A DNA stretch of 64,000 nucleotides, from contig JBBTWT010000003.1 of NCBI GenBank assembly GCA_038078615.1, positions 2,563 through 66,562 on the forward strand, written 5' to 3'. The position numbers and the translations under genes were made by a program. Each line of letters starts with the position of its first letter. Positions within the stretch are counted from its first letter, which is position 1. This stretch comes from Patescibacteria group bacterium. Lineage in GTDB: Bacteria > Patescibacteriota > Minisyncoccia > Moranbacterales > UBA1568. A model generated the notes under the pieces. The model worked only from the letters and a program-made list of their open reading frames with translations, ran no database searches and was not told the origin of the DNA. This document shows positions 1,718 to 59,640 of the stretch, one piece after another.

Positions 1718-1827
1718 ATATACCAAAACGTTGTTCAGTCTATAACATATCCGAAAAAACATCAATACCGGTATCGGGGTCGGCACCGGGCTTCTGGGAA
1801 TGGCGGTATTATGATATACTGAAAACC

Positions 1828-2920
1828 ATGAATATGACACGGGAGAAAATAGCGGTTCTTCGACAAAAACTCCTGCAGTTGCAGGACTATCTTTGACTTC
1901 GCCCGAAAGGACATCCGCAGAGCGGAACTCCGCACACAGAGCGAACGGCCGGACTTCTGGAATGATCCGAAGGCCGCCGGACGCGCGATGCAGGAACTGG
2001 AGCTTCTCCAGAGCGAGAAGGATGCCTTCGAACGACTGGAGGAGACCCTGACCGATCTCGAAAGCTTCGCGCTTCTCGAAGACCTGAAACCCGCAGATCT
2101 GAACGAGCTCGAGAGCGAATACGCGGCCGCCGAAACATCGATTAACGAATGGGAATTCAGGACGCTGCTCGGCGGGCAGTACGATGCCAAAGGCGCGCTC
2201 CTCACGGTGAGAAGCGGCGCAGGCGGCGTGGATGCCCAGGACTGGGCGGAAATGCTGCTGCGGATGTACCTGCGCTATGCCGAGAAGCAGGGATGGAAGA
2301 CGCGCCTGCTCGATGAATCGCGCGGCGGCGAAGCCGGCATCAAGAGCGCCACGATAGAGATATCCGGCGCCTACGCGTACGGCTATCTGCGCGGAGAGTC
2401 CGGCATCCATCGGTTGGTGCGCCTGTCGCCGTTCAATGCGAACAGCCTGCGGCAGACATCGTTCGCATCGGTGGAAGCGATGCCGGTCGTCGATGATACG
2501 GAAGCGGAGGCCATCCGGCCGGATGAACTGCGAATCGATACGTATCGCTCGTCGGGCGCCGGCGGCCAGAGCGTCAATACCACGGACAGCGCCGTACGCA
2601 TCACGCATATCCCGACCGGCATCGTCGCGACCTGCCAGAACGAACGTTCGCAGTTCCAGAACAAGGAAGAAGCGATGCGGATACTCCGTTCCAAGCTCAT
2701 ACAGAAACGCATCGAGGAACAGGAAGCGGAGAAACAGCAGCTGCGCGGAAAGCGGAAGAGCGCCGAGTGGGGCAATCAGATCCGTTCCTATGTCCTCCAT
2801 CCCTATACGCTGGTCAAAGATCATCGTACCGGAACCGAAACGAGCGATACGGAAAAAGTCCTGGACGGCGATCTGCAAATGTTCATCGAAAGTGAGCTTC
2901 GCTATCTACAATCGCATTAA
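1828..2920 (+). CDS. prfB: peptide chain release factor 2, programmed +1 frameshift
   Basis: Frame 0 MNMTREKIAVLRQKLLQLQDYL ends at CTT TGA C (1891-1897). The +1 frame continues DFARKDIRRAELRTQSERPDFWNDPKAAGRAMQELE... SPF (RLSPFNA) and GGQ (SGAGGQSVN) motifs are present. Confidence 0.95.
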
Positions 2921-2997
2921 TATTTACCACATCGCTTGTCATTGTCGTTCGAGAACGACGTGATGAACGAGCAACTGTGGCAAAATAAAATAAACAT

Positions 2998-3699
2998 ATG
3001 CCAGACATTCAGCCCATCATCCGTTTCGAAAACGTCACGAAGACTTTTCCGCCCGATCACGCGGTGCTCGAGCATGTCAATCTGTCCATCCAGCCGGGAG
3101 AGTTCCTCTCCATCGTCGGATCGAGCGGCGCCGGCAAATCGACCCTGCTCAAGCTGATCTATGCCGAAGAGCCGCCGACGGAGGGGGAGATCTATTTCAA
3201 CGAACGTCCCCTGGGGCAAATCAGCCGCAAGCACCTGCCTTTTTTCCGCCGCAATATCGGGACGGTATTCCAGGATTTCAAGCTGCTGCCACAGCGGACC
3301 GCCTTCGAGAACGTCGCCTATGCGCTCGAAGTCGATGGCAAAAGTACCGCTGAAATCAATGAGGAAGTGCCGGAAATTCTCGAGATCGTAGGCCTGGGCG
3401 ACAAGATGCACAAGTTCCCCAAGCAGCTCTCGGGAGGGGAACAGCAGCGCGTATCGCTCGCCCGCGCGCTCATCCATCGTCCCAAAGTGATCATCGCCGA
3501 CGAGCCGACCGGCAATCTCGACCCTGTTTCGGCCAATGAGATTATCCAGCTCCTGCTCGAGATCAATTCGTTCGGCACGACCATCCTGCTCGCGACGCAC
3601 AACAAGGGCATCGTCGACAAGCTCGGCAAACGCGTCATCCTTATCAATGGTGGCCAGATCATCCACGATCAGAGTAAGGGAAAATATATGTTACAATGA
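2998..3699 (+). CDS. ftsE: cell division ATP-binding protein FtsE
   Basis: Walker [10 protein letters not shown], signature LSGGEQQR, Walker B VIIADEP. Followed directly by ftsX. Confidence 0.9.
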
Positions 3700-29264: not shown

Positions 29265-30548
29265 ATGAGTCAGAAAGCAAAGACGGTCGCTGTCGTCGGG
29301 CTCGGGTATGTCGGATTGCCGCTTGCCATACGCGCCAAAGAACGGGGCTATGATGTCATCGGTTTCGATACGGATGCGAAGAAAATCGCCCTTTTGCAAA
29401 GCGGCAGAAGCCCCATCAAGGACGAGTTTCTCGAAAAAAACCTCCCCGAGCATCCTTTCGATGCGACTACCAATCCAGCGAAGCTCTCATCGGCCGATAT
29501 CATCCTCATCTGTGTGCCGACTCCGGTCGACGAGAAATTCTATCCGGATCTCATGCCGGTCATCTCCGCTTCCGCGCTGATCGCCAAGCATGCCAAGAAA
29601 GGCGCGCTCGTCGTGCTCGAATCCACCGTCAACCCGGGCGTCAGCGAAGAAGTCGTCAGGCCGATCTTCGAAAAAGCCGGGTTCACCGTAGGCTCGGACA
29701 TCTACCTCGCCCACTGTCCCGAACGCATCAACCCCGGCGATCCGAAATGGAACGTCACCAACATCCCGCGCGTCGTCGGGTCATTCGACGAGACCGGGCT
29801 CGGCATGGCGTACGATTTCTACGTTTCGATCGTCGACGGTGAGATCCGCAAGATGCGCTCCATCCGCGAAGCCGAAGCCGTCAAGATCGTGGAGAATTCC
29901 TTCCGCGATATCAATATCGCGTTCGTCAACGAGCTCGCCCGCTCTTTCGACGTGCTCGGCATCGATGTGAAAGACGTGATACTCGGTGCCGCGACCAAGC
30001 CGTTCGCCTTCATGGCGCACTTTCCTTCGTGCGGCGTCGGCGGCCACTGCATCCCGGTCGATCCCTACTATCTCATCGAGCGCGCCAAGCAGTCGGGCTT
30101 CGATCACAAGTTCCTGAAAATCGCGAGAGAGATCAACAACAGCATGCCGGCATATACCGTGGAGCTCCTGCAGGACGCGCTGAATACCGCCAAGCTGCCG
30201 CTCAATGGCACGAGAATCGGCGTTCTCGGGCTGGCGTACAAGGCGAATATCGACGACCTGCGCGAATCTCCCGCTTTCAAGGTCATAGAACACCTGAAAA
30301 AGCATCACGCCGAGGTGGAAGTCTTCGACCCGCACGTCACCAGCCGCTCGACGACGCAGTCTCTCGAGGATCTGCTCGGCAAATCCCAGGCGCTCGTACT
30401 CGTGACCGATCACAAGGAATTCAAGGAATCTATCACACCGGAGCTTCTGAAGAAACACGGCATCAGGGTCATCATCGACGGCAAAAACTGTCTCGACAAG
30501 CAATTATTCGAAAAATCAGGTATCATCTATAAAGGCATCGGCCGATAA
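29265..30548 (+). CDS. nucleotide-sugar dehydrogenase (UDP-N-acetylhexosamine 6-dehydrogenase type, WecC/WbpA-like)
   Basis: VAVVGLGYVGLPLA Rossmann fold. Catalytic Cys context GVGGHCIPVDPYY. C-terminal UDP-binding domain LGLAYKANIDDLRESP. Confidence 0.85.
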   Translation: MSQKAKTVAVVGLGYVGLPLAIRAKERGYDVIGFDTDAKKIALLQSGRSPIKDEFLEKNLPEHPFDATTNPAKLSSADIILICVPTPVDEKFYPDLMPVISASALIAKHAKKGALVVLESTVNPGVSEEVVRPIFEKAGFTVGSDIYLAHCPERINPGDPKWNVTNIPRVVGSFDETGLGMAYDFYVSIVDGEIRKMRSIREAEAVKIVENSFRDINIAFVNELARSFDVLGIDVKDVILGAATKPFAFMAHFPSCGVGGHCIPVDPYYLIERAKQSGFDHKFLKIAREINNSMPAYTVELLQDALNTAKLPLNGTRIGVLGLAYKANIDDLRESPAFKVIEHLKKHHAEVEVFDPHVTSRSTTQSLEDLLGKSQALVLVTDHKEFKESITPELLKKHGIRVIIDGKNCLDKQLFEKSGIIYKGIGR

Positions 30549-40796: not shown

Positions 40797-42275
40797 ATGA
40801 AAAACTTCTCTTCCGCGCTCGTGTGGCTTACGGTCTCCGAGATCATCTACAATATTTCCGGCTATGTCATCCATTCGGCTGCCGGACGCATCTTAGGACC
40901 CGAAGAATACGGCCGGTTCGGACTCACCGTGACCTTGACCACGATGATCATCATTCTCATCGGCAACGGCATCCCGACCGCCATGTCGAAGTATCTGAGC
41001 GAGGTGTTCGAGAGCGCCCCGGAAAAGATATACGGCATCAAGCGTTCCGCTGCGAAACTCCAACTCATCCTGATGAGCTCTGTGACGATAGCATTTTTCC
41101 TCCTGGCACCGGTATTTGCCGCACTCCTCCGCGATCCGAGCCTGACCCCCTTGTTCCGGCTTTCTTCGCTCATCATCCCCGCGTTCGCAGCGGCATCGTT
41201 TTATTTCTATTATTTCACCGGCCTGCACTTTTTCCGGATGCAAGCGATACTGAAAACGTTCCGCGCATTCGCGCGCGTCGGTTTCATCGTGATACTCGCA
41301 TACCTCTTCAGCACAGAAGGCGCTATCAGCGGCTACATCCTCGCGCCGCTTCTGATATTCGTCATCGGCTTCGTCTGCGACGGCATCCTCACTAGAAAGT
41401 ATTTCCCTGCCGCGCATGAGAACAAGGCTGATTCCGCATTCTCGATGAGAACCATCCTCCAGTACGCCGGGCCGCTCACCCTGTTCCTTCTGTTCTATGA
41501 ATTCATCCTCACTCTCGACCTCTACTTCGTGAAAAGCCTCCTCCAAAGCGACTACCTCACCGGCATCTACAACGCCGCTATCACCGTCGGCCGCATTCCC
41601 TACTATCTTTTCTACGCGCTCGCCATCATCCTGCTCCCGGCCATTTCCAAATCAACATCGGAAAACGATTCTCTCGCGACAAAAAACCTCGTCGAGAAAT
41701 CCCTGCGCCTCCTGATATTCCTTCTCTTCCCGATGGTCACGCTGCTCATCGCCTATGCGCCGCAAATCCTCCATATCTTCTACGGTGCCAGGTACGCGGC
41801 CGCGGCTCTGCCGATGCAGGTCTTCGCCATCGGAGTCGGCTTCCTCACGGTTTTTTATGTCTTGAGTTTCACCCTCAATGGCGCCAACCTCGTCAAAATC
41901 CCACTGAAACTCGCGTTTTTCGGATTTCTCGGTATGATCGCGCTCAACTTCATCCTCATACCTCGGTGGGAACTGGTGGGCGCCGCCCTCGCGACAACCA
42001 TCGTCTCTTGTATTCTGATGATACGTATCCTCATCTACGTGAAGATGCATTTTCACACCCACATCTCGCTCAAGACACTCATCTTCGCTTCTCTCGGCGC
42101 CGTGATCATAGGGATAGCCGCGCGCTATTTGCCTCACGGGACATATGACTTCATGCTTTTCGGAACTATCCTCTTCTTCGCCTATTTCGGACTTCTCAAG
42201 CTTTTCGGCGAGCTGACTGAAGAAGATTTAAAACCGTTCAAAAAGATTTTTCGGAAACAAACCTCGACTGATTGA
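40797..42275 (+). CDS. Wzx-type oligosaccharide flippase (MOP superfamily)
   Basis: About 14 TM helices. N-terminal GYVIHSAAGRILGPEEYGRFGL is typical of polysaccharide biosynthesis (Wzx/PST) proteins. Confidence 0.75.
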   Translation: MKNFSSALVWLTVSEIIYNISGYVIHSAAGRILGPEEYGRFGLTVTLTTMIIILIGNGIPTAMSKYLSEVFESAPEKIYGIKRSAAKLQLILMSSVTIAFFLLAPVFAALLRDPSLTPLFRLSSLIIPAFAAASFYFYYFTGLHFFRMQAILKTFRAFARVGFIVILAYLFSTEGAISGYILAPLLIFVIGFVCDGILTRKYFPAAHENKADSAFSMRTILQYAGPLTLFLLFYEFILTLDLYFVKSLLQSDYLTGIYNAAITVGRIPYYLFYALAIILLPAISKSTSENDSLATKNLVEKSLRLLIFLLFPMVTLLIAYAPQILHIFYGARYAAAALPMQVFAIGVGFLTVFYVLSFTLNGANLVKIPLKLAFFGFLGMIALNFILIPRWELVGAALATTIVSCILMIRILIYVKMHFHTHISLKTLIFASLGAVIIGIAARYLPHGTYDFMLFGTILFFAYFGLLKLFGELTEEDLKPFKKIFRKQTSTD

Positions 42276-42362
42276 CATTTCTTCGGGAATCCTCTAGATT
42301 GACCCCATCAAGCCTGATAGGTTTGTTTGTTGTATCCACCTCAACGTATAGGAGATTCATCA

Positions 42363-43845
42363 ATGAGTACGTTTACATCCAAAGTATTTCCAACTAAGGT
42401 CATCCAGTTGGCTGGTACCAAAGAAACCATCGTTTGTGGCGGTCGCGATCAATTTCCTCTCCTGGTCAAGGGATTCCATGGAAAGAACAATATAGGTGTC
42501 ATCGGCTGGGGCTCGCAAGGTCCCGCCCAAGCCATGAACCTACGTGACTCGCTTCGCGGCACCAACATCAGGGTGAGAGTCGGCTTGCAAGCAAGACGGT
42601 AGCCCTTCGCGGGACAAGGCAAGGGCAGCCGGTTTCAACACGGAAAATGGTACGCTGGGTGAGATGTACAGCGTCATCAGTCAATCAGACATCGTCCTGT
42701 TGCTCATTTCCGATGCCGCCCAGGCCGAAAACTGCCAAGCTATTTTCTCTGCCATGAAAAGCGGCAGCGTACTCGGGCTCTCACATGGTTTTCTCATAGG
42801 TCACCTGAAAAACATCGGCGTAGCCTTGCCTAGCCACATCAATGTGATCGGGGTATGTCCAAAAGGTATGGGGGTGTCAGTCCGACGGCTCTATGAACAG
42901 GGCACGGAAATAAACGGCGCCGGCATCAATTGCAGCTTCGCGGTAGAGCAAGATATCGAAGGTGCCGGAAAAATGACTGACATCGCTCTCGCATGGGCCA
43001 TCGCTATTGGTGCCCCCTACGTTTTTCAGACGACGCTCAAGGATGAATACATCAGCGATCTTTTCGGGGAGCGCGGCATCCTTCTCGGTGGCCTCCATGG
43101 CATCGTCGAAGCACTGTATCGCCGTTTTTCTGAAAAAGACCCCTTCCACAGCTGTAGCCTTGCATTTCACCAGTCGGTGGAAAATATCACCGGTGTAATC
43201 AGCCACCATATTTCGCAAGCCGGACTCATCGACCTCTACGATAAGCTGGATGAGCAAGGTAAGAGAGTGTTCGAGAGGATATACGCCAGCGCCTATGGGC
43301 CAGCGTACGTTCTCCTCGAGGAGATCTATGACGAGGTCAGTAGCGGAAACGAAATCCGCAGTGTCATCATGGCCGGTCAAAGATTGAAGCAATACCCCAT
43401 GAGCGAAATTGGCAACACAGCCATGTGGCGAATCGGTGAGAGGGTACGAGCCGATAGATCATCTGTGGTACCCGTTGTCAACAAGTTCACTGCCGGCTTG
43501 TACTGTGCTGTCATGATGGCGCAGGTCGACGTGTTAATAAAAAACGGCCATTGCATGAGCGAGGTGTGCAATGAATCCATCATCGAGGCGACGGATTCGC
43601 TCAACCCATACATGCATGCCAGGGGCATCGCGTATCTGGTGGACAACTGCTCCACCACGGCACGACTTGGGGCACGCAAATGGGCACCGCGTTTCGAAGC
43701 GATGATAAACCAGGAAGTTTTTGTCGCGTACGACAGTCATGTAGACCGAAAGCCTATCGAGGCTTTCCACAGTCATCCGGTACATGAAGCGCTCGCCGTA
43801 TGCGCAGAGCTTCGTCCGCCGGTAAACATCTCGGTCGGTGTGTAA
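42363..43845 (+). pseudogene. ilvC: ketol-acid reductoisomerase, long plant-type class II form, interrupted by a +4 frameshift
   Basis: The N-terminal part (GWGSQGPAQAMNLRDSL...VRVGLQ) stops at 42600-42602. The +1 frame continues QDGSPSRDKARAAGFNTENGTLGEMYSVISQSDIVLLLISDAAQ...LGLSHGFL...CPKGMGVSVRRLY...NCSTTARLGARKWAPRF...VHEALAVCAELRPPV. The break coincides with the tandem CAAGCAAG at 42588-42595. Confidence 0.8.
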
Positions 43846-43871
43846 ACCAAATATTCCGCACATGCGGAAAA

Positions 43872-43930
43872 GGGCAGGTAAAAGGAAGTAACATCTCCTT
43901 CTCCTGCCCGATTTTTTTTATAAATATACT
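43872..43930 (+). terminator. rho-independent terminator after ilvC
   Basis: GGGCAGG ... CCTGCCC stem followed by GATTTTTTTTA. Confidence 0.65.
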
Positions 43931-43938
43931 GCTACCGC

Positions 43939-45465
43939 CTACTGCTCCCAGCGATAGACATCGATAGCGCCGCGCACCTGATCGTTGCTCACCTTGGTCA
44001 AATTTTTCGTCAGAAATTCTTTCGCATCCTTGCCGACATAATCATAATCATTGTCGGAGAGTATCACCCAGCCGGTCTGATATTCCGTCATCAGCTTCTC
44101 GAGATCAGCCTGCGAGAGCCGGGTCCTGGAAATCTCATCACCGAGATCGTATACCGGCACATTCGCGCCGCTAAAGTAATAATTGCGCACATTGCGTGTC
44201 ACAAGCACATCGGTCGCTACGTGATTTTTCTTGAAATATGCAAATACTTTCCGATAGTTCGGGTTGCTGCCGGAAGAGGTCTCATGGTAGGTATTGTTCT
44301 CCTCCGCGAAGTAGCCGAGATTCGGCACCAGAACGAAGAGCAGGCCCAGCACGGCGAGGGATTTCTTCGTCGTAACGATGCCGAACTTTTCACACGCGAG
44401 TTTCCAAACGCCGAAGACGCCGGCCGCGACGAGTATCATCGCGAACGTCTGGATGAAAAAGATGTACTGCGCGCCGATATTTCTCCGCCACAGCCATATC
44501 GCCATCGCGAGCGGTACGAGAAACGACAAAGAGAGCCACAGCGATTCTTTCGGCAGATTCTCGCGCTTGGCGATCCACCATCCGCCGAGTAACATAAGCA
44601 AAACAGCTAGGAGAGGATGGTAGTAATCGCGGAGCACATAGCTCACATACCCATAATGATCATCGAAGAAAATAAGCCCGCCGGCGAAAGAGCGAAAAAT
44701 TTTCGGAAAAAACATCGCGACAGCGATCGCTCCGACAAGACCGAGAATGAAAATAATGGAGTATTTGTGCCGCCATTCCCCATTCCGGCGGTATTCCTGG
44801 AACGCTCGCGCCACAAGGTAGATGGCTACGGAAAAAACTAGCGTTCCGGCCAATTGATGCGTCAGAAGCGAAAACGCGAAAAAGAATATGGCGGCAAGAG
44901 CAAAATGCACGTGAATACCGAATTTCTCTCCGATCAAACGGCACCAGCGCATACGACCGGTATAGGCCTTTTCCAAAGCGAGAAAAGCGAAAGTGGCAGC
45001 AGCGAGATAGAGAGGAAAAAACATCGCGTACATCCGGAGTGTCCGGTCGAAAACGATACCACTGACGGAAACCGCGAAAAACGCCGCCGCGAGAAGCGCA
45101 ATTTCCCGGCGCTTCGTCATCACAGACGCCGCCCAAAAAACCGCCAGTATCGAAATGATGCCCCACAGCACGCTCACGGATCGGGCCGCCGTCTCGGTCG
45201 GCGGCAGAAAGCGGAACAGCTGCGCCACCTGCCATTTGTACACGACCGCCCGCTCATCGCGCGGCACGTTGATATTCACTTCGGACAGACGGCCGAAATT
45301 GAAATCCCACGCCCGCCACTCTCCCGTCTGCGAGTATCCGTACGACGAATTCATATCGAGAAACTCATCCGACACGAAAGAATTGTTGCCAAGCCCGGAA
45401 AACCGCAGTCCCGTTCCGAAAATGACGATGGCTGCAAGCGCGATGATTGTTTGTTTCCAGCTCAT
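43939..45465 (-). CDS. GT-C fold glycosyltransferase (ArnT/PMT_2-like, family 39/83 type)
   Basis: At least 10 TMs. First external loop GLGNNSFVSDEFLD carries the acidic DE motif. Soluble C-terminal domain. Confidence 0.7.
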   Translation of the reverse strand: MSWKQTIIALAAIVIFGTGLRFSGLGNNSFVSDEFLDMNSSYGYSQTGEWRAWDFNFGRLSEVNINVPRDERAVVYKWQVAQLFRFLPPTETAARSVSVLWGIISILAVFWAASVMTKRREIALLAAAFFAVSVSGIVFDRTLRMYAMFFPLYLAAATFAFLALEKAYTGRMRWCRLIGEKFGIHVHFALAAIFFFAFSLLTHQLAGTLVFSVAIYLVARAFQEYRRNGEWRHKYSIIFILGLVGAIAVAMFFPKIFRSFAGGLIFFDDHYGYVSYVLRDYYHPLLAVLLMLLGGWWIAKRENLPKESLWLSLSFLVPLAMAIWLWRRNIGAQYIFFIQTFAMILVAAGVFGVWKLACEKFGIVTTKKSLAVLGLLFVLVPNLGYFAEENNTYHETSSGSNPNYRKVFAYFKKNHVATDVLVTRNVRNYYFSGANVPVYDLGDEISRTRLSQADLEKLMTEYQTGWVILSDNDYDYVGKDAKEFLTKNLTKVSNDQVRGAIDVYRWEQ

Positions 45466-49657: not shown

Positions 49658-49716
49658 CGCAAAAACCGCTCTGCCAGGTGGGACAACGTAATATATTCAA
49701 AGCGGTGCCAGCGGGT

Positions 49717-51543
49717 ATGACAAGTTTTCTGAAAAGATATTTTTCTCACATTTCGCTTGCCTTCATTCTTTCTTTGTATTTTTTCTTCGGTTTCCAGCAC
49801 CTCGAAAAATTTATCACCGCGGATGAACACTATTGGATCGAGGAACGCATTCCACAATATTGGCACGCGGTAACGAATGGCAAATGGAAGAAAACACTCA
49901 TCAATGACAAGCCCGGCGTAGCGCTCGCCCTCATCTCAGGGCCAGCGCTTCTCTTCCATAACGATACGACACTCGGCTGTCAGGAACAGGATGGGTGGTT
50001 CCGTCATTGTGATCCGGAGATGACATCTCGGCTGTACGCGTCGTTCCGTCTCCCGATCCTCTTGGTAAACGCTGCTTTCCTCATACTCATTTTTTTCTCG
50101 ATACGGGCGTTCTCCGATCGCTTCGTCGCGATGGCCGCCACAGGACTCATGGCGCTTTCCCCAAACCTCGTTGGAATGTCACAGATTGTCAATCCGGATT
50201 CCCTGCTCTGGTCGTCTGGCTCAGCCGCGCTCTTCGCCTTCCTGGCCTTCCTCAAAACAGGAAAACGATCCTTCGCCCTTTGGGCAATCGTTGCCCTGAC
50301 GCTCGCGCTCCTTTCAAAATACACCGCTCTCATCATCATATTTTTTCTCCCGTTTTTCGTGCTTGCAACACTCTTCCTCGATCCGTCTTTCTCACCGCTT
50401 TCGCCACGAAAAAAGTTTTCGGCTCTGACAGGAATATCCGCTATACCGTTTTTCCTCTTCCTGGCCATCGTCCCCGGCGTCCTTTCGTCCAAGGAACGGA
50501 TAACCACATTCCTCACTGCGGGAACCGGATCCTTCCTCCCGTGGATCGGTTATGCTATCCTCATTTCGCTTCTCGTTGCGGTCTCGTTTTTCCGTATCCC
50601 AAAAAAACTTGAACCAGTGATCCTGTTCTCGACTCGCTTTGCGCTCCGGATGATCGCGATCGGTTTTTTCGCGCTTTCCGTCTCACTCGTTCTGGAAAGG
50701 GCGATCTTTCCTTTGTGGGACATCTGGAACGTCATCCCGTTTGACATCAAAAACCTCACAAACGCGCGGTACTATCTCGCGACACCACTCTCCTGGCTCG
50801 ATATCACCTTTCTTGAGCTTTCGCCACTCATATACGGACTCCCGATGGCGACACTTTTCTTCGCGCTCTTCGTGATCGGTTTCTCGGTTCTCTCGAAAAC
50901 GAAGAAGAATTTTTCCATCGTTCTCATCTTCACTTTTTTCATTGTCATTCACCTTGCCACGCTTGGAGTCTCAAATGTCCTGGCGATACCGCGCTACATC
51001 ATCCTCATTTTCCCCATATTCGCGCTTCTCGCCGCGATCGGTATGAAAGAACTATGGGGACTTCTTCCAAAAAAATTCCAAACAAAAAAATACCTCGCTA
51101 TCGGAGGAACCGCCCTGGTACTGGTTTCTCTCGGGAGCTTGCTTGCAAGCAAGCCGTACTACACCAATTTCGCGAACAGCCTTCTCCCCGAAAAATCCCT
51201 CATTTCACATTCCTGGGGCTATGGCGGATATGAGGCCGCACAATACCTGAATGCCCTCCCCGAAGCGAAGGATCTCACTATCTGGTCCGATTATTACGGT
51301 GTCTGTGAATTCTTCGTCGGCCGCTGTCTTACTGTCTATACCTTCGACCCAAAAATCACTCCGGACTACTATGTTCTCACCAGACGCGGACAGATCCGCT
51401 ATATATCAAAATATGACCGATGGGAGGAAAAATCCGGCCTGACGGCATACCGGTACTACAACCGGATCGATCCGGTATTCGGCATCAGTATCAATGGAAA
51501 AGAATCGAACTTCGTGAAAGTTTTCAGGGTTGACAAGCCCTAG
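49717..51543 (+). CDS. GT-C fold glycosyltransferase, paralog B of a tandem pair
   Basis: FITADEHYWIEERIPQYWHAVTNGKWKKTLINDKPGVALAL and ...GVCEFFVGRC...FVKVFRVDKP are colinear with the upstream gene. ATG at 49717 preferred. Confidence 0.7.
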   Translation: MTSFLKRYFSHISLAFILSLYFFFGFQHLEKFITADEHYWIEERIPQYWHAVTNGKWKKTLINDKPGVALALISGPALLFHNDTTLGCQEQDGWFRHCDPEMTSRLYASFRLPILLVNAAFLILIFFSIRAFSDRFVAMAATGLMALSPNLVGMSQIVNPDSLLWSSGSAALFAFLAFLKTGKRSFALWAIVALTLALLSKYTALIIIFFLPFFVLATLFLDPSFSPLSPRKKFSALTGISAIPFFLFLAIVPGVLSSKERITTFLTAGTGSFLPWIGYAILISLLVAVSFFRIPKKLEPVILFSTRFALRMIAIGFFALSVSLVLERAIFPLWDIWNVIPFDIKNLTNARYYLATPLSWLDITFLELSPLIYGLPMATLFFALFVIGFSVLSKTKKNFSIVLIFTFFIVIHLATLGVSNVLAIPRYIILIFPIFALLAAIGMKELWGLLPKKFQTKKYLAIGGTALVLVSLGSLLASKPYYTNFANSLLPEKSLISHSWGYGGYEAAQYLNALPEAKDLTIWSDYYGVCEFFVGRCLTVYTFDPKITPDYYVLTRRGQIRYISKYDRWEEKSGLTAYRYYNRIDPVFGISINGKESNFVKVFRVDKP

Positions 51544-54222: not shown

Positions 54223-57200
54223 TTAGTATGTAATATTCACCTGCCCACTCTCCGTCACAATCCCAGGAACGACCATCCCCGGAAGTTTCGCTTTGGTTGG
54301 ACGAGTATCGACATCATCGTCTTCATCACTGTCGTTCAGATCCCTCGGTTTCTCCATAATGACCGTAATGTTCTTCTTTGGCCGATAGTGTGATTCGAGC
54401 ACTTTGATATCGGTTCTGATATGCGAAACAAAAAACCGGTATCCTCCTTTCTTCTCATTATATACCCATTTGTATCTGAGCGTGGCGGCAAGAGGAGTGG
54501 TTATGCCGTCATAGGCGATAGACTCCAGGGTACGGACGATGCGCCGCTGTTTATCCTGAACCTTGGAAAAGGTGAGTGTCAGCGTATGTCCAGCTTCATC
54601 GGTGACGGTGCTTACTGTCTCCGTATTCGTAACAACGACACCGGAAACAACATCTATCCCGATAACATCAAGTTTCTGGGTTGCTGGATTGAACTGGATT
54701 TTCGCTTCAGGAGCAGTTTTGTCTATTTTGATCGCTTTTGTCTTCACCTCTCCCTTGTTCCCCTGCTTGTCAGTTGAGAAATATCGGACATCCGTCACAC
54801 CTTCCTTGGAAATGATAAATGGCTCAGCATACATACTCCACATTGCACTGCTATCAATCGAATATTCTATTTTTTCAACGCCACTACCGCCCTCATTGTC
54901 TGCTGCGGAAAGCGTAACTGTGACATCGCTCGTGTACCAATCATTGCTACCTACAGTACCGGAAAGTGTCGCGGTGGTAGTAGGAGCAAGAGTATCAATC
55001 GTCACTGTTTCGCCGGGTTTCGGCGCGAGCGAGAAATCAGTTGTTCCATCGCCATCGTAATCAACCGTAAGCGGTGAGGCGTTTTCTATCGTACCGTCGG
55101 AAAAATTCATAGTGACCTCGGTATCGGGAGAAGCGGGAATAGCGGAAAATGTCGTCGTTTCTGTCACCTCTCCCCCACTCACTTCCTGAACTTCGAGAGT
55201 GAACGATCCGGTGTCGAGACCATCGAGCACCAACGTGGGGGAACTGTCCGCCGGGACGGAAATATACTGTACCTCACCGAAACGGCGATATGTGGCGCCG
55301 GGATACGCATCTTCAGTAGCGCTGATCATATTGCCACTACTATCGCGAGCTGAGAGAGTCAGTGGTGAATGCAAGAAATAACGCAATCGCCGCATATCAT
55401 TTGTGGTTGGTTTAACATTTGAAATATAATCAGGAAAAATAGAAGATGATTGAGTGAGGATATTTTCTTTAATAAAGTTACGTAGCTCGGAAACCTCTAA
55501 AATATTAGCGTGTTCACCATCAAACCTGGCCAAACTTCCCGGGAGTTCATTATTATACTTATGTAGATCCACCCACCACCGCGAAACATTCGCCGCACTC
55601 GTACTCATCGCTAAGGCACTCGACGCAACGACCGTCCCATCGCCATCCACGACCAATTCCGGAGTATACTCCAGCTTCGGCACACGAGACGAGCAGATCT
55701 TCCCTCCTTCATGGAGACACTCCTGTCCCGTCCAATATTTGATCGTGCCGAGCGTCTCCTCGCCGAATCCGGCGATCTGATACACGGAAACCCCTGCTGG
55801 AGCAGACCAGTTATCGTCCAGCGCCTGGTGCGTATTTTCGCCGTACGCAAGCAGTCCGGAATTCACACTGCTGGGGCTCCCGATATTAGCGGAGTCAGCG
55901 GATACTTTTCCCTCGTTATCCGAAAGAAAGTCACGCAGTTCAGATGAACTGTCGATTTTCTTGCCATATTTTCCAATAAAAGAATCAGTCGACGCTCCAT
56001 CTTCAAAAGTAATGACCGGGGTATCGATGCCACTCCCCTCGCCTGAGAAATATGCATCCGATGGCAGAAGATTGTACGCGCTTGGCATATTCTGCGCCAA
56101 CGTACGGGCTGTTTTCGGTGTGAGGGTAAAGGGAAACCAGCTCACAGGCAGCCCCTGATCATACCCATGAAGTATCGCCCCGATAGCCTGCGGCGTTCCC
56201 GATTGTGGTACCGCCACGAAAACGATCTTGTCGATAAGATCCGCCGCTTCCGCTCCCAGTTTGTCGGTCAGTGCTTTGGCTACCAGGCCGCCATTAGAAT
56301 GAGCAATAAGGGTAATCTTGCCTGATTTCGAAGTACTCGCAAGACGACGCAATTCTTGGATGATATAGGGAGACGCGGTCGGCTCCGTGTACGAAATATT
56401 CTCCCCTGTCTTCTTGCCGCTGTTCAGTATGTCATCCAAAGAGAGGCGCCAATCGTATGGAGCAACGACATAATCTGCGATAAGATTATCGGTGTTTTTC
56501 CACTCATCCAGGTCAGAAAGAAATGATTTGTAGATATTTCCTTTGATCGGAACGTACGCGTTGTCAATAACATCTCTCGTAATGATATCATTTCGGATGC
56601 TTTTCCCATCTTCATCAAGATACAGCTTTTCAACATCAGCATCGCCATAAGGTTCCCAGAGTTTGTCGTCGCCTGCGTACAGTCGGCTCGCTTCCAGACC
56701 AGGCAGAAACAACACATTCGAGTAACAGTTCACGATGCAGCCGAGCAATGGATCGTTGCCGAGCCAGGGGTCAAAGAACACATAATTCGTCACGGCGTCT
56801 CCAATGCCCTGCGGATTGCTCGGATGTCGCGGTCCGGACGCATCGCCCCACCAGTTATTGGTCGCGTCTATCACCGTACGGACGGGCGACAAATTATACA
56901 CGCCGTAACCGGTATTGCCATGAATGCTGTTGTCACGCATGACGACGCTCCCGCCATGAAACCCGAGACCGTATTCCGAAGCGGTAAGCTCGGACGATGT
57001 CAGTGTCAGCTGTCCGCTCACATTGCGGATATGATACTGATTGCTTTCAGAAAATTGGGAACCGGTAATGGTGACATCCGCTCCGTAATTGGTGATCTGT
57101 CCGGCAGACGGACACCCGCCATAACGGACCACTGTATTGACGATCGTCGTGACACCGCCGGCGATATTGATACTGCACCAGTTTCCCTTCGCAGGTATCG

Positions 57201-58173
57201 TGGCAGCGCCATCGTTATTCGTATCTCCGCCTACCGTGTCATCCGCGAGAGAGGTAATGGTGACTTTTTCCGCATCAGCGGCTCCCACTGTCAGCGTCCC
57301 GTACACATACAGTGCCCAGTTGGTGTTCGCTGCTTTGACTGTCGCCCCCGGCTCTATGACCAGGGAAGAGCCGGCGGGAACAGTGATGTTGTTCACGACG
57401 TAGGGCAGCGTGTCTTTGGAAAAAACGGTGGCGCCGGACAGCGTTCTGTTTCTCAAATATATGCCGCTTTCCCCGCTATTGTTCCCGTCGTTTTGAAACA
57501 TTCCTCCGGACAAGAGGATCGCGATAGTGTTATTCGTGAATATATTGTTTCCAAAACGGAGTATTCCTCCCTTTTGCCAGAGCGCATATTCATCATTGTC
57601 ACGGATGGTACTCGCGTATATTTCTGTCGTACTGCCATCAAGAAGGATGAAGCTGTGATTCGAACGCGAAAACTCCGAATGTGACACGGACACAATGCCT
57701 CCCTGATTATATACCGTGGCGGAGACATTGTAGCCACCGTAATACAGCGCGGTATTTGCGATATTCGTCGTACCACCTATCACCTGGATGCCATTCCAAT
57801 CGCCTATCGAAGACGGGAGAGTGAGAGAGCCGTCGGCATTGGTGTCACCGCTGATCGCGTCATCCAGGAGAGAAGTCATAACGGTTTTCTCGGAACCAAG
57901 GGTGCCAATCGTGAGCGTACCGTACACAGTGAATGCCCAAGAACCTTTGGGTACTTTCACTACCACACCGGGTTCTACGACAAGAGAAGAACCGGCAGGA
58001 ACAATGACATTGTTCGCTATATACGGACTGTTCGCCGTGGTCCACGTGACATGACCGACAATAGTGCCGGTCACGGTCGTAGCGGCGGATGCCGAAGAAA
58101 TCGCGATGAGAAAACAAAAAAACGCGGACAATGATATGACAGAAAATCTCGCGACAATCATCGTTGTTCGCAT
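54223..58173 (-). CDS. 1316-aa secreted multidomain protein: duplicated beta-helix cap modules, right-handed beta-helix repeats, LCAT-like alpha/beta-hydrolase (lipase/acyltransferase) domain, Ig-like C-terminal domains
   Basis: Signal peptide ...AISSASAAT. Modules at aa 36-147 and 244-353 are clear duplicates. NxxGxxG beta-helix style repeats. APYDWRLS (aa 571-578), nucleophile ITLIAHSNGG (Ser626), VVDGDGTVV and GEHANIL match the lecithin:cholesterol acyltransferase family pattern. GGSGVEKIEYSID...W..Y Ig-like module. Confidence 0.75.
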   Translation of the reverse strand: MRTTMIVARFSVISLSAFFCFLIAISSASAATTVTGTIVGHVTWTTANSPYIANNVIVPAGSSLVVEPGVVVKVPKGSWAFTVYGTLTIGTLGSEKTVMTSLLDDAISGDTNADGSLTLPSSIGDWNGIQVIGGTTNIANTALYYGGYNVSATVYNQGGIVSVSHSEFSRSNHSFILLDGSTTEIYASTIRDNDEYALWQKGGILRFGNNIFTNNTIAILLSGGMFQNDGNNSGESGIYLRNRTLSGATVFSKDTLPYVVNNITVPAGSSLVIEPGATVKAANTNWALYVYGTLTVGAADAEKVTITSLADDTVGGDTNNDGAATIPAKGNWCSINIAGGVTTIVNTVVRYGGCPSAGQITNYGADVTITGSQFSESNQYHIRNVSGQLTLTSSELTASEYGLGFHGGSVVMRDNSIHGNTGYGVYNLSPVRTVIDATNNWWGDASGPRHPSNPQGIGDAVTNYVFFDPWLGNDPLLGCIVNCYSNVLFLPGLEASRLYAGDDKLWEPYGDADVEKLYLDEDGKSIRNDIITRDVIDNAYVPIKGNIYKSFLSDLDEWKNTDNLIADYVVAPYDWRLSLDDILNSGKKTGENISYTEPTASPYIIQELRRLASTSKSGKITLIAHSNGGLVAKALTDKLGAEAADLIDKIVFVAVPQSGTPQAIGAILHGYDQGLPVSWFPFTLTPKTARTLAQNMPSAYNLLPSDAYFSGEGSGIDTPVITFEDGASTDSFIGKYGKKIDSSSELRDFLSDNEGKVSADSANIGSPSSVNSGLLAYGENTHQALDDNWSAPAGVSVYQIAGFGEETLGTIKYWTGQECLHEGGKICSSRVPKLEYTPELVVDGDGTVVASSALAMSTSAANVSRWWVDLHKYNNELPGSLARFDGEHANILEVSELRNFIKENILTQSSSIFPDYISNVKPTTNDMRRLRYFLHSPLTLSARDSSGNMISATEDAYPGATYRRFGEVQYISVPADSSPTLVLDGLDTGSFTLEVQEVSGGEVTETTTFSAIPASPDTEVTMNFSDGTIENASPLTVDYDGDGTTDFSLAPKPGETVTIDTLAPTTTATLSGTVGSNDWYTSDVTVTLSAADNEGGSGVEKIEYSIDSSAMWSMYAEPFIISKEGVTDVRYFSTDKQGNKGEVKTKAIKIDKTAPEAKIQFNPATQKLDVIGIDVVSGVVVTNTETVSTVTDEAGHTLTLTFSKVQDKQRRIVRTLESIAYDGITTPLAATLRYKWVYNEKKGGYRFFVSHIRTDIKVLESHYRPKKNITVIMEKPRDLNDSDEDDDVDTRPTKAKLPGMVVPGIVTESGQVNITY

Positions 58174-58234: not shown

Positions 58235-59614
58235 CTATACTCCTATCCCGAAATAGGTGAATCCTTCTTTTTCCGCTTCCTGGCGGTCGAAGATGTTGCG
58301 GCCGTCGACGATGACGCGCTGCTTCATCCGCGCGGCAAGCTCCGGATACTCCGTCGTACGGAATTCATCCCACTCGGTCATAATCAAAAGCGCATCCGCG
58401 CCTTTCACGGCATCATACGCATTGAGAGCATACTTCACCCGCTTGTCCGGGAACATCGCTTTGAAGCTCTCAATCGCCACCGGATCGAAGGCTCGCACCG
58501 AGGCCCCCGCCTTGAGCAGCGCTTCGATGACATAGAACGCCGGCGCCTCGCGTACATCGTCGGTGCGCGGTTTGAACGACAGTCCCCAGACCGCTATCGT
58601 CTTGCCCTTCAGGCTCTTGAAATGTTTCTTGAGAAAGGCGATGGGACGGAGCTTCTGCATATCATTCACCTTGTCGGCCGCTTCGACGATACTGAACTTC
58701 GAACCGTATTCCTTGCCCGTCTGCATCAGCGCCTGCACGTCCTTGGGGAAGCACGATCCGCCGTACCCGATACCGGCATAGAGGAAGCGCGAGCCGATAC
58801 GGCTGTCCGCGCCCATACCGCGCGCCACTTCTTTCACGTTGGCGCCGGACTTCTCGCAGAAATTCGCGATCTCGTTGATGAAGGTGATCTTGGTCGCGAG
58901 AAAGGCATTGGCCGCGTACTTGATGAGCTCCGCGCTGCGCACGTCCGTGATGATCACCGGTCGTCCCGCGCGGGCGATGGGACGATAGATCTTTTCCATC
59001 AGTTCCTTGGCGCGATCCGACGACACGCCCAAGACGACACGGTCCGGATTGAGGAAGTCCTTGATCGCCGCGCCCTCGCGCAGGAATTCCGGATTGGAAA
59101 CAATATCGAATTCGCCCCCGCCCAAATCACTCTGTGAACCGTGGCGGGCAAGTTTCCCCTTACTCGCGTGCATGATGATATCGCGGCACTTGTCAGCCGT
59201 CCCGACCGGTACCGTCGATTTATTGACGAGAATCTTGTAGTTTACCCCATGAACCGCCTTGCCAGGTTCCGCGGGGCCGTTCAAATTTTTGCCGAACGTC
59301 TCCGCTACCGCATACACATACTGCATATCCGCCTTGCCGGTCTTCTTGTCCTCCGGCGTGCCGACCGCGCTGAACACGACATCGGCCTCGCGGATAGCCT
59401 GCCCCACGGACGCCGTGAACGACAGACGTCCCTCTTTCACATTCTTCTCCACCAGTTCATCTAAGCCCAGCTCGTAGATCGGCATGATACCTTTCTTCAG
59501 TTTGGCTATCTTCTGTTTGTCGATATCCGCGCAGATGACCGTATGTCCGAGTTCCGCCATACACGTCCCCGTCACGAGCCCGACATACCCCGTCCCAATA
59601 AAAGTTAATTTCAT
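58235..59614 (-). CDS. ugd: UDP-glucose 6-dehydrogenase
   Basis: MKLTFIGTGYVGLVTG, GIGYGGSCFPKDV catalytic Cys, WGLSFKPRTDDVREAP. ATG at 59614 preferred; the 8 upstream codons are repeat sequence. Confidence 0.9.
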   Translation of the reverse strand: MKLTFIGTGYVGLVTGTCMAELGHTVICADIDKQKIAKLKKGIMPIYELGLDELVEKNVKEGRLSFTASVGQAIREADVVFSAVGTPEDKKTGKADMQYVYAVAETFGKNLNGPAEPGKAVHGVNYKILVNKSTVPVGTADKCRDIIMHASKGKLARHGSQSDLGGGEFDIVSNPEFLREGAAIKDFLNPDRVVLGVSSDRAKELMEKIYRPIARAGRPVIITDVRSAELIKYAANAFLATKITFINEIANFCEKSGANVKEVARGMGADSRIGSRFLYAGIGYGGSCFPKDVQALMQTGKEYGSKFSIVEAADKVNDMQKLRPIAFLKKHFKSLKGKTIAVWGLSFKPRTDDVREAPAFYVIEALLKAGASVRAFDPVAIESFKAMFPDKRVKYALNAYDAVKGADALLIMTEWDEFRTTEYPELAARMKQRVIVDGRNIFDRQEAEKEGFTYFGIGV

Positions 59615-59640
59615 ACTTTTATAATCATCAATTATCAAAA

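Follow-up and report, generated by a model that had tools for sequence, protein, structure and literature searches.

A stand-alone plant-type class II ketol-acid reductoisomerase gene, probably acquired horizontally and recently inactivated, in a groundwater CPR bacterium

At positions 42363 to 43845 of the window, that is, the whole stretch of 64,000 nucleotides analysed here, a gene for a ketol-acid reductoisomerase (KARI) lies broken into two reading frames. It is flanked upstream by an oligosaccharide flippase gene (Polysacc_synt/MurJ-like; 40797..42275, + strand) and downstream by the convergent gene of a conserved 508-aa protein (p508; 43939..45465, − strand), which mark the two sides of the insertion site. 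The host is a CPR/Patescibacteria bacterium represented by a metagenome-assembled genome (MAG), as indicated by exact protein matches (NCBI MEK91510xx-MEK91511xx, locus tags AAB547_), and a match to the flippase at ≥90 % identity is annotated as Candidatus Moraniibacteriota. The contig is ENA ERZ1292636 Hain_PNK108_H32_02um_77_length_71431_cov_18 and originates from groundwater of the Hainich Critical Zone Exploratory (well H32, 0.2-µm fraction), with the reads deposited in PRJEB36505 and the assemblies in PRJEB36523 (PMC8672522).

The first open reading frame (ORF1, 79 aa; 42363..42602, + strand, with ATG at 42363 and TAG at 42600-42602) ends in ...VGLQARR and comprises 76 native KARI residues up to ...GWGSQGPAQAMNLRDSLRGTNIRVRVGLQ, followed by the out-of-frame codons for A-R-R and the stop codon. 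It carries the GWGSQG nucleotide-binding motif, and its match to Pfam KARI_N is weak. The second (+1) frame stays open between 42575 and the stop codon at 43843-43845. After the break it continues with DGSPSRDKARAAGF..., so that 42596..43845 on the + strand holds the rest of the KARI gene, from residue 77 to residue 492 (numbered in the repaired protein) and the stop. The first start codon of this frame is the ATG at 42664, with no ATG, GTG or TTG before it, and the resulting 393-aa ORF2 therefore contains neither the GxGxxG motif nor the cofactor loop. The two frames part at CAAGCAAG (42588-42595), located within the period-4 run GCAAGCAAG (42587-42595), which by comparison with the gene of a sister species and with homologues represents a 4-bp tandem duplication on the + strand, i. 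e., one unit too many and hence a +1 shift. According to an alignment with the spinach enzyme and the published loop assignment (PMC5940873), the duplication falls between the codons of Gln76 and Asp77 and thus inside the β2-αB cofactor-specificity loop; that it landed there is regarded as a coincidence. Deletion of one 4-mer gives a single 492-aa ORF reading ...VGLQDGSPSRDKARAAGF..., without any gap at the junction relative to plant KARI. The site and nature of the break as well as the restoration of the frame by removal of one CAAG, both put forward in the original prediction, can therefore be read directly from the sequence.

In the sister species the break site reads CTGCAA----AACGGTAGC, which identifies the 4 bp as an insertion in the window lineage; they are likewise absent from all aligned homologues. 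Since tandem 4-mer doublets are frequent by chance (235 observed in the window versus ~250 expected), the doublet is no evidence by itself, and it gains significance because its position is precisely that of the frame break and of the gap that appears against every homologue. The duplication is present in four assemblies (the ENA contig, the NCBI MAG, and the Logan assemblies of two runs), which may, however, stem from one aquifer population. The exact 393-aa ORF2 is found on the 71,431-bp ENA contig and on both Logan contigs, the latter two also carrying the 79-aa ORF1; the Logan contig of ERR3858122 is identical over 11.6 kb, that of ERR3858126 differs by 2 SNPs over 12 kb. Among 5.8 billion protein clusters, no match falls into the range from 87 % to 100 % identity where an intact allele would be expected, and a pattern scan of JGI metagenomes accepting both forms gave no match to either allele. 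The lesion is thus real and concordant across the four assemblies, although at this assembly level of comparison a minority intact allele may possibly exist beside the duplicated one. In the NCBI MAG, the region is covered by the tags AAB547_00590 to AAB547_00600, comprising a 79-aa “hypothetical protein” (MEK9151111.1), a tag without protein, and a 96-aa “hypothetical protein”. The latter, which the contig index does not list among its called genes, is a C-terminal annotation fragment of the broken KARI, and because the annotation splits the gene in this way, its identity is hidden in public protein names.

The repaired protein matches both Pfam domains of the family, KARI_N (PF07991, 107.5 bits versus a cutoff of 20.6) and KARI_C (PF01450, 112.3 bits versus a cutoff of 29.1), the latter in two stretches, which identifies the long class II architecture. 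In this class (PMC5940873), a single chain of ~490 aa contains the knotted domain twice, and both the length (492 aa) and the duplication are found here. In phmmer searches, residues 4-490 align without a junction gap to the KARIs of rice (3fr7, E = 5e-179) and spinach (1qmg, E = 3e-176), whereas E. coli class II KARI (1yrl) is matched with E = 2e-19 only. With an identity of ~57-60 % to the rice and spinach enzymes compared to 26 % to E. coli IlvC, the repaired protein is nearer to the plant than to the enterobacterial class II enzymes, and the proposed colinearity with plant-type long KARI holds from end to end. The NCBIfam ilvC equivalog model TIGR00465 yields 211.9 bits, just under its trusted cutoff of 226.15, which affects automatic naming only and not the fold or active site; the model of the enterobacterial long form (PRK05225) yields 87 bits versus a cutoff of 713. 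In the phmmer alignment to 1qmg, the residues corresponding to spinach His226, Lys252, Asp315, Glu319, Glu492, Glu496, and Ser518 (precursor numbering, i. e., 1qmg chain index + 71) are all kept, which we take from the KARI literature to be Mg-binding or catalytic. Both domains and the active-site residues are hence present, but the window copy lacks an intact ORF and, judged by its sequence, is a pseudogene of the KARI family (EC 1.1.1.86).

The gene is accompanied by putative expression signals of its own. The spacer between the flippase stop codon and KARI measures 87 bp and holds a promoter-like site on the + strand (TTGACA, 17 nt, TAGATT; 42272..42300), a candidate promoter by virtue of 10 out of 12 consensus matches, which is conserved in the corresponding locus of the sister species (L001). 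A Shine-Dalgarno sequence AGGAG (42350..42354, + strand) is located 8 nt 5′ of the ATG, and a GC-rich hairpin (GGGCAGG...CCTGCCC) followed by T8 (43872..43919) sits between the convergent KARI and 508-aa genes; both are conserved in L001 as well. The hairpin was not flagged by a simple scanner and is probably a bidirectional terminator. As had been suggested, the gene resides within a glycan locus, which includes the flippase, GT39/PMT_2 (three genes), GT4, GT2, Wzy_C, LytR, two UDP-glucose dehydrogenases, and LPG_synthase_TM. The 508-aa protein has no Pfam match but is conserved at 31-78 % identity in over 60 metagenomic loci, where its gene again neighbours those of a flippase and GT39, and is probably an uncharacterised membrane component of the glycan system. 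Elsewhere the window encodes housekeeping functions typical of CPR bacteria, such as RF1, FtsEX, GluRS, PriA, Def, Fmt, GroES, RtcB, and AdoHcyase. A search for branched-chain amino-acid genes (ilvB/H/D/E, leu) found none in the 64 kb or in an extra 2.9 kb of the contig, in agreement with the earlier claim that there are none nearby; the orphan status accordingly holds for the contig, which covers ~71 kb of the genome.

A search of the 5.8 billion protein clusters with the repaired protein gave more than 5,000 matches, the best 120 of which are nearly all 488-521 aa long and 62-66 % identical, with named entries from Desulfobulbaceae, Desulfobulbus, Desulfobacterales, or Thermodesulfobacteriota. 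The plant-type subfamily is thus common in bacteria, with thousands of proteins of 491-492 aa, mostly from Desulfobulbia. A scan of the GTDB species genomes, a set that contains neither the window genome nor its sister, gave members from Desulfobulbia at 62-67 % identity, further members from Spirochaetes, Planctomycetota, Latescibacterota, Nannocystaceae, and Streptomyces, and, within the CPR, from a Saccharibacteria MAG (59 %) and the Parcubacteria genome M6-OD1-1 (57 %). In a bootstrapped neighbour-joining tree (computed from a distance matrix and rooted on E. coli IlvC), the window protein and its sister pair at 100 % bootstrap and are placed among bacterial sequences, while the deeper nodes are weak and a grouping of all CPR sequences reaches 34.5 % bootstrap. 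As the subfamily is large in bacteria and the window protein is nearer to these sequences (Desulfobulbia, 62-67 %) than to plants (57 %), the plant-like oddity that had initially attracted attention falls away by the criterion that the original prediction itself had set: “plant-type” long KARI is a widespread bacterial family rather than a plant marker. As an aside, a contig binned as Promethearchaeota (Asgard archaea) carries a long KARI (L012, 1622-3085) that pairs with the KARI of a Thermodesulfobacteriota MAG at 100 % bootstrap and, the branch length being near zero, is almost the same sequence; it is probably a binning contaminant rather than an archaeal gene.

Compared to the plant enzymes (spinach 1qmg/1yve, rice 3fr7), the window gene is collinear over 487 residues and shares the duplicated knotted C-terminal domain, but it lacks a transit peptide, belongs to a bacterial host, and is frameshifted; furthermore, it encodes Gln in place of Arg162, with Asp as the next residue. 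The long KARIs of Desulfobulbia/Thermodesulfobacteriota are the nearest relatives outside the CPR and have the length of 491-492 aa and the architecture in common with the repaired protein. Their hosts are presumably free-living bacteria that make their own amino acids, whereas the window gene is broken and resides in a reduced CPR genome. In Desulfolithobacter dissulfuricans, the one genome of this group whose context was examined, the KARI gene (GF1_05570, P0019) likewise lies apart from ilv genes, so that at least one free-living bacterium with a KARI of this subfamily also has it outside an ilv operon. The two KARIs from other CPR lineages, that of the Saccharibacteria MAG (L038) and that of Parcubacteria M6-OD1-1 (L042), belong to the same subfamily with 57-59 % identity and also stand alone, but in contrast to the window copy they are intact, retain Arg162, and occupy different genomic locations. 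These genes (L038, 6001-7500; L042, 5995-7455) are found amid genes for ParAB, LeuRS, MetRS, Sua5, TsaD, and thymidylate kinase, and no ilv genes occur within ~6 kb on either side. E. coli IlvC (1yrl) shares the enzyme family and the long architecture despite its identity of merely 26 %, and its gene adjoins that of its regulator ilvY, unlike the window KARI. A search of one literature collection revealed no work meaningfully linking KARI or ilvC with CPR/Patescibacteria; a paper on a “class II KARI from M. tuberculosis” was set aside as not relevant, as it concerns an E. coli-type enzyme.

In the sister species (locus L001, from Logan SRR22388219), an uninterrupted KARI of 494 aa with 88 % amino-acid identity is encoded at 1823-3307, and the gene order corresponds to that of the window, the flippase gene preceding KARI and the genes for the 508-aa and GT39 proteins following it. 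The dN/dS ratio between the two species amounts to 0.155 for KARI and to 0.10-0.14 for four neighbouring genes, and 16 versus 9 derived changes do not represent a significant rate excess in the window lineage (p = 0.23). The dS value of KARI (0.43), in contrast, is about half of that of the four neighbours (0.86-1.0), which does not fit simple vertical co-inheritance and could reflect either later exchange between the two lineages or constraint on synonymous sites. A search for a recombination tract as a cause of the low dS showed that the sliding identity to L001 is somewhat raised across KARI and the upstream spacer, without sharp boundaries.

With the 508-aa protein as probe, 67 related metagenomic loci were found (31-78 % identity), which keep the order GT39/PMT_2, p508, and flippase, the flippase gene converging directly on p508. 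None of the 67 contains a KARI. Because these loci share the gene order without it, the KARI gene was inserted in an ancestor of just the two species. The acquisition, in turn, was not recent, since the GC content is host-like (0.531 for KARI versus 0.52 for the window) and the insertion is older than the split of the two species. The convergent spacer measures 25-180 bp in L058, L062, L092, and L053. Other loci have 0.4-3.7 kb at this place, occupied by unrelated ORFs such as those for proteins of 316-353 aa in L063, L065, and L110 or by four genes as in L084. Overall, the flippase-p508 spacer (window 42276-43938; related loci L052-L118) looks like a variable insertion spot in CPR relatives. 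A comparison of the spacers flanking KARI with those of KARI-less relatives revealed neither similarity nor an obvious target duplication as scars of the insertion. A functional tie of KARI to glycan synthesis was considered and rejected, as more than 60 loci keep the glycan genes without KARI and some harbour unrelated genes in the same spacer; its position within the glycan locus therefore appears incidental.

The inherited enzyme carried an unusual cofactor loop. In spinach KARI, Arg162, Ser165, and Ser167 bind the 2′-phosphate of NADPH, and the loop that contains them sets the cofactor preference (PMC5940873). Instead of the canonical G-L-R-x-G-S-x-S, the repaired window sequence reads GLQDGSPS and that of the sister GLQNGSPS, i. 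e., Arg162 is replaced by Gln while Ser165 and Ser167 are both kept, so that neither sequence matches the canonical NADPH loop. Arg162 is present in all 26 other aligned members and in 119 of the best 120 of more than 5,000 matches, and, the sister set aside, all 119 of these best homologues keep the RxxSxS loop, unlike the window protein. The substitution is older than the split of the two species. Attempts to engineer KARIs for the use of NADH act on this same β2-αB loop. Given that the loss of Arg162 predates the split and that purifying selection went on afterwards, it is reasonable to infer that the cofactor preference of the ancestral enzyme may have been altered (NADH or dual).

Taken together, we regard the gene, with a probability of roughly 80 %, as a pseudogene that arose recently in a groundwater CPR bacterium from a stand-alone plant-type class II KARI acquired by horizontal transfer. 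The common ancestor of the window species and one sister species gained KARI between the convergent flippase and 508-aa genes, where it is equipped with a promoter-like site, a ribosome-binding site, and a terminator-like hairpin of its own, and the gene was then maintained by purifying selection. In the window lineage, the ancestral TTGCAAGACGG was converted to TTGCAAGCAAGACGG by the 4-bp tandem duplication with its +1 shift, a kind of change that replication slippage produces. Translation from the native start now stops after 79 residues, within the Rossmann fold, and the window copy presumably yields no active enzyme. As the remainder of the gene is free of other lesions, the inactivation appears to be recent, and it is confined to the window population. 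Before the lesion, the enzyme probably still performed a KARI-type Mg-dependent keto-acid reduction or isomerisation, its role probably being something other than that in a complete branched-chain amino-acid pathway. Of the explanations listed in the original prediction, that of an inactivated acquired gene is hence favoured by the four assemblies, the intact sister gene, the dN/dS of 0.155, and the absence of KARI from the 67 related loci. It has to be amended, however, not only with regard to the plant-like oddity but also in its timing: the intact sister copy and the low dN/dS agree with a recent inactivation, but the acquisition is old.

A more far-reaching and rather unlikely scenario is that the stand-alone KARI of this CPR lineage was a repurposed NADH-using or dual-cofactor keto-acid or acetolactate reductase that has just been lost here, as suggested by the loss of Arg162 followed by continued purifying selection. 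If so, the enzyme may have played a role in redox balance or in the salvage of host-derived intermediates where little NADPH is supplied, and the similar stand-alone copies in Saccharibacteria and Parcubacteria would suggest that the CPR have repeatedly put KARI to a use that is as yet undescribed.

Among the alternatives to a recently disabled functional gene, one holds that the transfer was a dead end and that KARI drifted as useless cargo long before the frameshift. In line with this, no pathway partner is found in the 64 kb, the lineage departs at 10-11 of 141 otherwise invariant positions, and CPR bacteria generally lack amino-acid biosynthesis (PMC12455944). A drifting gene is nonetheless hard to reconcile with a dN/dS that is as low across both species as that of the neighbouring genes, with the retention of all catalytic and metal-binding residues, and with an intact sister copy whose expression signals are conserved; two other CPR lineages moreover hold intact stand-alone copies, and we consider prolonged drift quite improbable. 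The chances are similarly slim for a reversible slip, in which the doublet would let cells of the population alternate between an intact and a broken gene. A tandem repeat can shrink by the same slippage that made it, and the undamaged remainder of the gene would suit such phase variation. Known contingency loci, however, use long repeat tracts, whereas only two units are present here; the “off” state is found in every assembly without any length variation among the four, the sister species has no repeat at this site, and ~235 similar doublets occur in the window by chance. This third option of the original prediction is accordingly disfavoured.

Its second option, a sequencing or assembly error that added the extra CAAG to a gene intact in the cell, is very improbable. 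The coverage of the contig is modest (~18x, judged from its name) and the comparison rests on assemblies rather than reads, but the identical 4 bp recur in all four assemblies, which draw on at least two runs and on different assemblers and one of which has 2 SNPs elsewhere, and the protein database holds no intact version. Illumina errors, moreover, do not typically take the form of 4-bp tandem duplications in non-repetitive sequence. Programmed +1 ribosomal frameshifting or transcript slippage, which would give a full-length enzyme one residue longer (...GLQARR-SPSRDK...), is hardly worth entertaining, for although the required shift is indeed +1 and the overlap ends with AGA and CGG codons before the UAG stop, superficially like the stop-codon-stimulated frameshift of prfB, the sister gene, a single uninterrupted ORF, does not share the break, there is neither a slippery codon for +1 re-pairing of the P-site tRNA nor a homopolymer run, and all 120 of the best 120 homologues (out of more than 5,000) are encoded by single ORFs.

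The recent loss of the acquired gene is an ordinary event of a known kind, devoid of any plant-related oddity, and provides a clean example of how a streamlined CPR genome gains a metabolic gene by transfer and later loses it. Beyond this, the repeated occurrence of intact stand-alone long KARIs in CPR bacteria, presumed to be without branched-chain amino-acid synthesis, and the natural Arg162-to-Gln variant in the cofactor-specificity loop may be of specialist interest.

The surrounding glycan locus shows some further features. A third GT39/PMT_2 paralogue (621-aa ORF, 49678-51543) is absent from the sister locus, where the LPG_synthase_TM gene directly follows that of a 757-aa GT39 protein. 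The two UDP-glucose/GDP-mannose dehydrogenase genes (29265-30548 and 58235-59638) are distributed one per glycosyltransferase cluster. Finally, a protein of 1316 aa, unusually large for a CPR genome, is encoded at 54223-58173 on the − strand and contains an LCAT (lecithin:cholesterol acyltransferase-like) domain as well as a weak match to DUF7379.
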